Below, piece by piece: positions 47,063 to 48,405 of a stretch of 64,000 nt of DNA. The stretch lies in assembly GCF_003018115.1 (NCBI RefSeq), contig NZ_CP027457.1. One strand, 5' to 3'. The translations under genes were made by a program, and so were the position numbers. The notes under the pieces are model-generated. The model saw only the letters and a program-made list of their open reading frames with translations, was not told where the DNA came from and searched no databases. Source of the stretch: Escherichia coli. GTDB taxonomy: Bacteria > Pseudomonadota > Gammaproteobacteria > Enterobacterales > Enterobacteriaceae. How positions within the stretch are numbered: the stretch's first letter is position 1; every line of letters begins with the position of its first letter.

Positions 47063-47163
47063 ATGAAGGGTCAACCAAAAGCCAGCTAAGGATTGTCTCT
47101 TTGATGACCTTACGTCTGGCTTCCAGTGCCTGGGGTGAAACCATACTGATGTGTTGACATCCT

Positions 47164-47183
47164 CCACGCCCTGAAGGACGTGG
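47164..47183. repeat. subterminal imperfect hairpin of the IS (tnpB-proximal end)
   Basis: CCACGCCCTGAAGGACGTGG: 5-bp stem, C/A mismatch, 2-bp stem, TGAA loop; 14 nt beyond the tnpB stop. Confidence 0.6.
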
Positions 47184-47196
47184 ATCCCTGCTACGT

Positions 47197-48405
47197 TCAG
47201 GCTGTCGCCTGAATCATTTCGGTGGGTTCCTGCTTCAACGGGCGGCCTGACTGCACCATCTCTCCACAGGCAAGAACGGCGTGCCCCGCCGCTAAAATGT
47301 TACGAGCGCCATTTACATCAGCGTTCGCTGTATATCCACATGCCTGGCATCTGAATTTACTTTGTGACAGGCGATTTTCTTTCGCTGTATGACCACAGCA
47401 CGCGCAACGCTGGCTTGTGTACGCTGGCGGAACAGCAAGCACCTGACCGCCACGCCAGAGCTGCTTGTACTCAAGCTGGCGGCGCATTTCATACCAGCCC
47501 TGATCCAGTATCGAACGGTTTAAACCTGATTTTGCCCGGACATTGCGCCCCGGCTGGCTGACCGTACCCGCTGCTGACTTTGACATGTTGCTGACCTTCA
47601 AATCCTCAATGACTATCATTGCGTGGTTTTTGCTGACGGTCGTTGTGACTTTGTGAAGGTAGTCCCTGCGGATATTTGCGATACAGGAATGCAGTCGCTG
47701 TATTTTGCGTTTCTGCTTCTGCCAGTTGTTGCTGAATTTGACCTTGCGGCTTAACTGTCGCTGAAGTCTCGCCAGCGTCTTCTGGTTTTTCTGAAAACTG
47801 TTTACAGGCTCAAAGACTGTGCCATCTGACAGCGTGGCGAGTTTAGCCACGCCAGCATCCAGCCCGACCATTGATGCTGAAGGGTGAGCCGGAGTGGATA
47901 CTTCACTTTCTGTCTGAATACTGATGTACCACTTACCGCAGGACTGGCTGACAGTGACATTTTTCACAACACCCGTGACCTGACGGCTATTCCGGTAGCG
48001 CATCCAGCCCAGTTTCGGCAGAAAAATACGGCTGTTTTCCTGATCGAGCTTAACGCCCTGCGGGTAGCGGAATGCATCATTCTGTCCCCGCTTTTTGAAT
48101 CGGGGAAAAGCAGCCCGCTTCCGGAAGAAGTTTTTGTAAGCCCGCTCAAGGTCTTTCAGTGACTGTTGCAATGGCTGTGACGGGGCATCTTTAAGCCATT
48201 GCGTTTCAGTGACATTTTTCCACTCAACCAGCCAGGAAGCCATTTTCCCGTAAGGGATGTATTTATTACCGGCCTCATGATTCTCATTCTGAAGCGCCAG
48301 AGCACGATTGAAAACGAAACGACATGCGCCTGCGAAGCGCCTCATTTCACGCTCCTGTTGACCACCGGGTCTTAACTGGAATTTAAATGCCTGTAGTCGT
48401 TTCAC
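47197..48405 (-). CDS. tnpB: TnpB (IS605 OrfB family, RNA-guided RuvC-like nuclease)
   Basis: 402-aa ORF with GTG start; RuvC-like motifs [20 protein letters not shown] and zinc finger CACCGH...CQACGY. Confidence 0.9.

Follow-up and report, generated by a model that had tools for sequence, protein, structure and literature searches.

A probable omega RNA gene at the 3′ end of tnpB in an IS609 insertion of Escherichia coli

Karvelis and co-workers are said to have reported in 2021 the omega RNA (also called reRNA) of the TnpB protein of ISDra2 from Deinococcus radiodurans, and Meers and co-workers reportedly showed in 2023 that Geobacillus IS605-family elements undergo TnpB-driven transposon retention. 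The right end of another relative, IS608 of Helicobacter pylori, terminates in TCAA, as does that of IS609. The ISDra2 omega RNA resolved by cryo-electron microscopy comprises stems 1-4 together with a pseudoknot that joins a stem-1 loop GAA to tail positions -5 to -3 (PMC10097598). RNAs derived from the RAGATH-18 family guide the TnpBs of IS607 (PMC11061315), and the retention concept is restated in the abstract of a preprint (bioRxiv 10.1101/2023.11.20.567912). Predicted omega RNA scaffolds for one IS609 and three ISAba30 TnpBs have been synthesised, according to a recent study (Nucleic Acids Res. 2026, Tables S1-S3; PMC12781874). Here we examine a 64,000-nucleotide stretch of Escherichia coli DNA (contig NZ_CP027457.1; "the window" throughout), which carries a copy of IS609, a member of the IS200/IS605 family, inserted in ytfA. 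Judging from comparison with related loci, minus-strand positions 47309 (or 47293) to 47134 very probably constitute the gene for the omega RNA of the TnpB nuclease of IS609. The parts of the element needed for this argument are the following:

47154-47309, minus strand: omega RNA scaffold, delimited by a covariance-model match; structured core at 47293-47154 (140 nucleotides)
47134-47153, minus strand: guide, 5′-CACAUCAGUAUGGUUUCACC-3′, consisting of ytfA flank DNA; 20 nucleotides are listed (the mature guide has 16 in ISDra2)
47197-48405, minus strand (start at 48405): tnpB (insQ), 402 amino acids, with RuvC residues D183, E267 and D363 and zinc-finger residues C334/C337 and C353/C356
47154-48901, minus strand: IS609, delimited by empty-site comparison, by identical ends in 6 independent copies and by the RefSeq annotation of the same insertion

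The scaffold shares about 95-110 nucleotides with the 3′ coding end of tnpB, its conserved structure starting about 95 nucleotides upstream of the stop codon, and its own end coincides exactly with the transposon right end (...GGAGGAUGUCAA). A sequence-only reading of this DNA had placed a minus-strand omega RNA over the last ~150 nucleotides of tnpB, the hairpin at 47164-47183 and the end of the insertion sequence, within 47080-47340. The hairpin is present, and the scaffold found there covaries, stops at the boundary and is homologous to published scaffolds. The interval itself was too wide: 47134-47309 belongs to the element, whereas 47080-47133 is ytfA/ytfB flank. Relatives were collected by scanning one genome per species with the pattern AGGAACCCACCG, a gap of 40-70 nucleotides and GGAGGATGTCA, two blocks taken from what the published IS609-like and ISAba30 scaffolds (PMC12781874) have in common. 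This yielded at least 120 related loci, from Beta-, Gamma- and Alphaproteobacteria, Nitrospira, Verrucomicrobia, Acidobacteria and Rhodococcus. Among the matches listed, 76 unique full-length sequences all read ..GGAGGATGTCAA, followed by a different sequence in each. The structural model derived from these relatives comprises the following features, in 5′ to 3′ order of the RNA:

47275-47293, minus strand: stem 1, AGCGGCG-GGGCA-CGCCGUU, with loop GGGCA at 47286-47282
47225-47270, minus strand: stem 2 region, CCUGU (47270-47266) paired with GCAGG (47233-47229), enclosing a GGAG box and stem 3
47262-47240, minus strand: stem 3, GAG-A-UGGU, loop GCAGUCAG, GCCG-CCC, with one A.C mismatch
3′ of stem 2, minus strand: single-stranded stretch, AACCCACCGAA
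47219-47232, minus strand: conserved 14-mer, CAGGAACCCACCGA
47193-47217, minus strand: extra hairpin H4, AUG-A-UUCAGGC, loop GACA, GCCUGAA-CGU, which holds the tnpB stop codon UGA (47199-47197)
47183-47191, minus strand: second GCAGG motif, GCAGGGAUC
47163-47184, minus strand: stem 4, the guide-adjacent hairpin, UCCACGUCC, loop UUCA, GGGCGUGGA
47154-47162, minus strand: 3′ tail, GGAUGUCAA, which stops at the cleavage site of the right end (..TCAA)

The covariation is extensive. RNAalifold, applied to a 27-sequence MAFFT alignment, returned three hairpins in which 17 of 24 pairs are compensatory. On the same alignment the five-helix model has 87.5% of its cells paired, as compared with 41-52% in slid controls, with 23 of 38 pairs changed on both sides; none of 500 shuffles equalled it. 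For the 94 distinct sequences among 101 model-aligned matches the values are 91.2% paired versus 44-57% when slid, and 27/33 pairs are compensatory; this larger alignment was fitted to the covariance model, and the MAFFT alignment agrees with it. The covariance model (R1), built from the 27-sequence alignment, matches 47154-47309 with 143.7 bits (E 1e-46); three copies give scaffold scores of 141-144 bits. Within the 64 kb its other match is the left-end hairpin only (13.7 bits), with no second full copy. Folding of the minus strand, as the sequence-only reading had proposed, gave a minimum free energy z of -3.0 for 47360-47134. The single-sequence minimum-free-energy fold contains H4 and stem 4, yet pairs the 5′ half unlike the covariation model, which was preferred where the two disagreed. 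A CC:GG pair that RNAalifold adds to close H4 was omitted from the model, as it never varies.

Taken helix by helix, all five modelled pairs of stem 1 are compensatory (97.5% of cells paired), as are 4/4 pairs in the core of stem 3 (92.9%) and 8/8 pairs in H4 (87-89%); stem 2 is paired in 91.7% of cells, and stem 4 in 95%, with 6 of its 9 pairs compensatory. The hairpin at 47164-47183 reads ccacgccctgaaggacgtgg, and its lone mismatch turns into a G-U pair on the minus strand. A near-identical copy of it lies in the left end (48866-48885), which is what recognition of single-stranded DNA by TnpA would call for. Stem 4 has a double role, being both an RNA stem and the subterminal DNA hairpin of the right end. 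In two other E. coli copies this hairpin has one broken pair: a substitution in the copy near yedK (L003, 403-558) gives CCUCGUCC...GGGCGUGG, and a plasmid copy (L127) reads GCCC...GAGC.

By analogy with the GAA:UUC contact of ISDra2, a pseudoknot is proposed between GGCA of the stem-1 loop and UGUC of the tail (47159-47156). Across published scaffolds the loop and the tail change together: GGAAU occurs with UUUC in ISYmu1 and GAGA with UCUC in SfaTnpB, while GGGCA or GGACA occurs with UGUC in ISDge10, ISAam1, ISAba30 and IS609, next to the ISDra2-type GAA:UUC. Two other pairings were considered and rejected. One would join GGUG of stem 3 to CACC within CAGGAACCCACCGA; GGUG varies (GAUG, GGCG, GGCA, CUAA) and its changes are compensated inside stem 3, not toward CACC. 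The other would pair the tail with GGAUC just 5′ of stem 4, and the ISDra2 structure has the pseudoknot in place of the analogous predicted pairing.

Two near-duplicate motifs, GCAGGAACC-CACCG (47233-47225) and GCAGGGAUC-CACGU (47191-47183), flank H4. This arrangement resembles an old internal duplication of the segment lying just ahead of stem 4 in ISDra2. One might further imagine a two-state fold in the IS609/ISAba30 clade, in which ribosomes terminating in H4 decide whether a transcript serves as mRNA or as guide RNA. We regard such a translation-coupled switch as a long shot; if true, it would be something not described for ISDra2.

A separate line of evidence concerns the level at which selection operates. 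Among the matches listed, CAGGAACCCACCGA encodes QEPTE in 17 loci with IS609-type TnpBs, the window included, and, one frame over, GTHR in 17 other loci with ISAba30-type TnpBs. Coding does not account for these bases, because both frames occur among TnpB genes that carry the same bases. Selection at CAGGAACCCACCGA therefore appears to act on the nucleotides, the invariance of the block being partly imposed by the search pattern, which set 12 of its 14 bases. The position of the stop codon, again among the matches listed, ranges from 25 nucleotides before to 128 nucleotides after the start of the 14-mer block. The C-terminal domain of TnpB is poorly conserved and disordered (PMC10097598), with which the two-frame reading agrees. 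This reading is a clean argument that the RNA shapes the C-terminal coding region of TnpB.

The architecture corresponds to that of ISDra2. In both, the omega RNA lies at the tnpB 3′ end, overlaps the coding sequence, runs through the right end and takes its guide from the flank. The ISDra2 scaffold has CUCAUGGAGG...CGAAGUGAGAAUC, a hairpin with a UUUA loop, and GAGGUUCAA in common with that of IS609. Stem 2 is CUCAU/GUGAG in ISDra2 and CCUGU/GCAGG in IS609, a GGAG box following its 5′ strand in each case; stem 3 occurs in both, much shorter in IS609; the guide-adjacent hairpin has 9 base pairs in both, with a tetraloop UUUA (ISDra2) or UUCA (IS609). The tails both end in ..UCAA, the IS609 tail having 9 nucleotides (GGAUGUCAA) and that of ISDra2 7 (GGUUCAA). 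The predicted pseudoknot is GGCA:UGUC in place of GAA:UUC, and the target-adjacent motif is TTAT in place of TTGAT. H4 and the second GCAGG-GAUC copy before stem 4 are present in IS609 and in neither case in ISDra2; the divergent arrangement of tnpA and tnpB in this IS609 is a further difference. The two TnpB proteins have the same D/E/D residues and zinc finger.

The scaffold is homologous to the IS609-like, ISAba30 and ISDra2 entries in Table S3 of PMC12781874. All 4 scaffolds synthesised there align with the minus strand of the window, the IS609-like one over its entire length, and end in GGAGGAUGUCAA. The published IS609 scaffold comes from a metagenome orthologue and is a fixed stretch of ~206 nucleotides without a structural model; many stem positions differ between it and the window scaffold, with compensation. 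TTAT is the motif used for IS609 in Table S2 of that work, in which IS609 TnpB was purified with a TTAT-targeting omega RNA. Weaker resemblances lead to the same kind of RNA. In Rfam, the sub-threshold matches are to HgcC (RF00062; 23.5 bits against a threshold of 50, E 0.014), sot0042 (RF02656; 17.5 against 88) and RAGATH-18 (RF03064; 25.4 against 44.9), all of them archaeal and bacterial non-coding RNAs known from the 3′ ends of tnpB genes. The weak matches go solely to such tnpB-associated families and are in register, HgcC and sot0042 aligning with stem 4 and the tail and RAGATH-18 with stems 2/3. The IS609 omega RNA is not a member of these curated families. The HgcC consensus has a hairpin where IS609 has H4, so that H4 is not unique to the IS609/ISAba30 clade.

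The reading of the guide depends on the exact ends of the element, for which the following features are also needed:

48902-48905, minus strand: target-adjacent motif, 5′-TTAT-3′, directly 5′ of the left end
48845-48901, minus strand: left end of IS609, containing the hairpin CCCCGUCCUUCAGGGCGGGG at 48885-48866
48413-48844, plus strand: tnpA, 143 amino acids, an intact Y1 (HUH) transposase gene divergent from tnpB, as annotated in RefSeq

IS609 is 1,748 base pairs long and interrupts ytfA without target duplication. The functional top strand of this copy is the minus strand of the window, the left end lying at 48901 and the right end at 47154. In E. coli Ecol_881 the uninterrupted site reads ...CCATACTGATGTG followed directly by ATAAACCAGG..., with the junction between ...GATGTG and ATAAACC. 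An ambiguity of one nucleotide (G) in this junction was settled through 5 other independent insertions, namely those adjoining ydcO in K-12, at yedK, at a gene for a DUF3251 protein, at hslO/yhgE and on a plasmid; the ends are identical across the 6 copies. The right boundary is consequently 47154, merely 43 nucleotides from the tnpB stop codon. The sequence-only reading had called for the exact end to be defined so that the guide could be read, and had considered that no scaffold might fit between the stop codon and the boundary. With the end at 47154 the guide reads CACAUCAGUAUGGUUUCACC, and the shortness of the gap is no obstacle, because ~95-110 nucleotides of the scaffold overlap tnpB coding sequence, as in ISDra2.

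At all 6 independent insertions TTAT precedes the left end (TTTAT at 5 of them), and the sequence 3′ of ..GTCAA differs at each of the 6 sites. The minus strand of the empty ytfA site reads TTTAT-CACATCAGTATGG, that is, the motif followed by a match to the guide. The predicted target for the TnpB of this copy is TTAT plus CACATCAGTATGGTTTCACC. The IS609 copy itself escapes its own guide, since the DNA that matches the guide is preceded by GTCAA and not by TTAT. The element displays the characters of its family: a Y1/HUH TnpA, a pair of hairpins on one strand (47164-47183 and 48866-48885), and integration on the 3′ side of a short motif with the target not duplicated. In its Y1 TnpA, in subterminal hairpins at both ends and in its mode of insertion it is like IS608 and the Geobacillus elements, and the homing logic, in which motif plus flank equals a guide match, is common to all three. 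Its motif is TTAT as opposed to TTAC in IS608 and Geobacillus, and its tnpA is divergent from tnpB, as in IS605, and not in tandem with it.

TnpB itself has the features of an RNA-guided nuclease. The RuvC-like D/E/D motifs and the CxxC...CxxC zinc finger recognised in the sequence-only reading are borne out, as GLDAGV (amino acids 181-186), VIEDLK (265-270), DVNGARNI (363-370), CACC (334-337) and CQAC (353-356). The alignment with ISDra2 TnpB (8bf8/8exa/8h1j; E 1.8e-54) covers the entire protein and places D183, E267 and D363 in the catalytic columns. It scores 387.8 bits with the NCBIfam model guided_TnpB (cut-off 100), contains the Pfam domains HTH_OrfB_IS605, OrfB_IS605 and TNB, and is 85% identical to the IS609 TnpB of PMC12781874. 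As compared with ISDra2 TnpB it has a 15-amino-acid insertion at residues ~276-290 (window ~47580-47536, minus strand), after the RuvC glutamate E267 and adjoining a disordered loop of the ISDra2 structure (residues 281-296). TnpA scores 147.6 bits with transpos_IS200 (NF033573; cut-off 55). In most other E. coli IS609 copies (in K-12 near ydcO, at yedK and others) tnpA is a pseudogene, through an internal stop or truncation, and the 402-amino-acid tnpB and the scaffold are intact. The nuclease and guide module appears to outlive the transposase in these copies.

Several observations weigh against an omega RNA at this site. A gathering-level Rfam search finds no family at this position in the window, nor in 13 related loci, so that the covariance-model search suggested by the sequence-only reading succeeds with the model built from relatives and fails with the curated families. 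Because the relatives were collected with a two-anchor pattern, the invariance of those two blocks is partly imposed. The complementarity of the stem-1 loop G[A/G][C/U]A to the tail UGUC holds in 98% of cells, with the tail fixed by the search pattern and the variation accordingly one-sided. The 5′ strand of stem 2, CCUGU, fits either GCAGG copy about equally (20 distinct triplets), which leaves its partner ambiguous, and stem 3 has an A.C mismatch in E. coli where relatives have A-U or G-C. A promoter and terminator scan gave counts within the range of shuffled sequences, with nothing on the minus strand ahead of the scaffold. In the literature searched, no IS609 or insQ transcript, small RNA or cis-cleavage was found. 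In the text read of PMC12781874, the one study found to have used an IS609-family TnpB, an orthologue other than IS609 is the most active, and activity, in vivo RNA and cis-cleavage are not given for IS609. Some of these points would also fit a relic, that is, a guide-RNA gene whose TnpB-omega RNA pair is weak or inactive in E. coli and whose conservation reflects recent spread: the stem 3 mismatch and the lack of a stated IS609 activity point that way, tnpA is broken in many E. coli copies, which are probably often immobile, and the E. coli copies, at 98-99% identity, are too alike to reveal purifying selection. However, in every copy examined, those with a dead tnpA included, tnpB is intact at 402 amino acids with all catalytic and zinc residues, the scaffold keeps its 141-144 bits in three copies, and tnpA is intact in the window. 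We therefore consider a relic unlikely.

The remaining explanations dispense with a guide RNA altogether. Were the hairpin and the end no more than signals for single-stranded recognition and cleavage by TnpA, and the rest the coding sequence of the TnpB C-terminus, one would expect what is seen at stem 4, which almost equals the left-end hairpin as TnpA binding sites would; the right end TCAA is as in IS608, and G-T pairs are also tolerated in DNA hairpins. But four more helices, 40-140 nucleotides inside the right end, covary and have no counterpart at the left end, the reading of CAGGAACCCACCGA in two frames cannot be explained by coding, and the architecture matches the ISDra2 RNA known from cryo-electron microscopy; the DNA role of stem 4 is, besides, already part of the omega RNA interpretation. 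An explanation by DNA signals only is thus very improbable. The GC-rich hairpin after the tnpB stop codon might suggest an ordinary 3′ untranslated region element, whether an intrinsic terminator or a small RNA of the Hfq type with no link to TnpB. What follows the hairpin is AGGAUGUCAAC, with no U run, and the terminator scan made no call there; moreover, the structure starts ~95 nucleotides upstream of the stop codon, and in all the matches listed the conserved sequence ends at the transposon boundary. We find this explanation scarcely credible, and an omega RNA gene serving TnpB remains by far the reading that we prefer.

If the locus works as ISDra2 and the IS605-family elements of Geobacillus do, the omega RNA would be made from the tnpB transcript and then trimmed at its 5′ side. 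It would bind TnpB through stems 1-4 and the pseudoknot between the stem-1 loop and the tail, and would present ~16-20 nucleotides of flank as the guide. Excision by TnpA would leave a resealed ytfA site, TTAT directly followed by CACATCAGTATGG..., which combines motif and guide match. TnpB with its omega RNA could then cut this resealed site, or naive alleles such as the empty site of Ecol_881, which hold the same target, and repair from a sister copy would restore the element.

In the chromosome, the insertion lies between ytfB (46388-47062, plus strand) on one side and yjfZ/rplI on the other. The two halves of ytfA, which encodes a TetR/AcrR regulator, occupy 47063-47153 and 48902-~49216 on the minus strand and are both pseudogene fragments in RefSeq; the 3′ end of ytfA overlaps the stop codon of ytfB. 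The gene is whole in insertion-free genomes, for example Ecol_881. When 46900-49100 was used as a megablast query against 5,426 complete E. coli genomes, the same arrangement was found at 98-99.4% identity in ~1,699 of them. The RefSeq labels there are ytfB, a split TetR/AcrR gene (ytfA), "RNA-guided endonuclease InsQ/TnpB family protein" and "IS200/IS605-like element IS609 family transposase", and a record of the same insertion, 99.4% identical, is annotated as IS609. A 60-amino-acid open reading frame on the minus strand (46985-47167), spanning the junction of right end and flank, was set aside as almost certainly spurious. Elsewhere in the window, gathering-level Rfam matches are to the Magnesium-II riboswitch, naRNA4, ES036 and STnc450, the small RNA ES239 and the RpsF leader (8139-8254, 18431-18508, 33702-33881, 38453-38575 and 51770-51854), ordinary E. 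coli features that are unrelated to IS609.

Among the related loci, four (L034, 5202-5390; L062, 285-437; L085, 430-548; L021, 3738-3887) retain the end sequence together with the scaffold's 3′ half, and the DNA upstream is unrelated to tnpB or has no open frame; they are perhaps truncated derivatives or ones without tnpB. A Burkholderiaceae metagenome contig with a related omega RNA (L027) also carries a C4 antisense RNA (RF01695, 60.7 bits) at 5326-5409, which suggests a phage or plasmid context.

The omega RNA of IS609 is an expected and already described kind of element: TnpB omega RNAs are established, RefSeq names the protein as RNA-guided, and a predicted IS609-family scaffold with its TTAT motif has been published (PMC12781874). 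The RefSeq records of the ytfA locus contain no RNA annotation for it. The additions made here are modest, namely a structural model, the two-frame reading and the exact guide. With scaffold, guide and motif defined to the base, the guide and the predicted target become readable for each IS609 copy, and an Rfam family for the widespread IS609/ISAba30 clade could be started from the covariance model.

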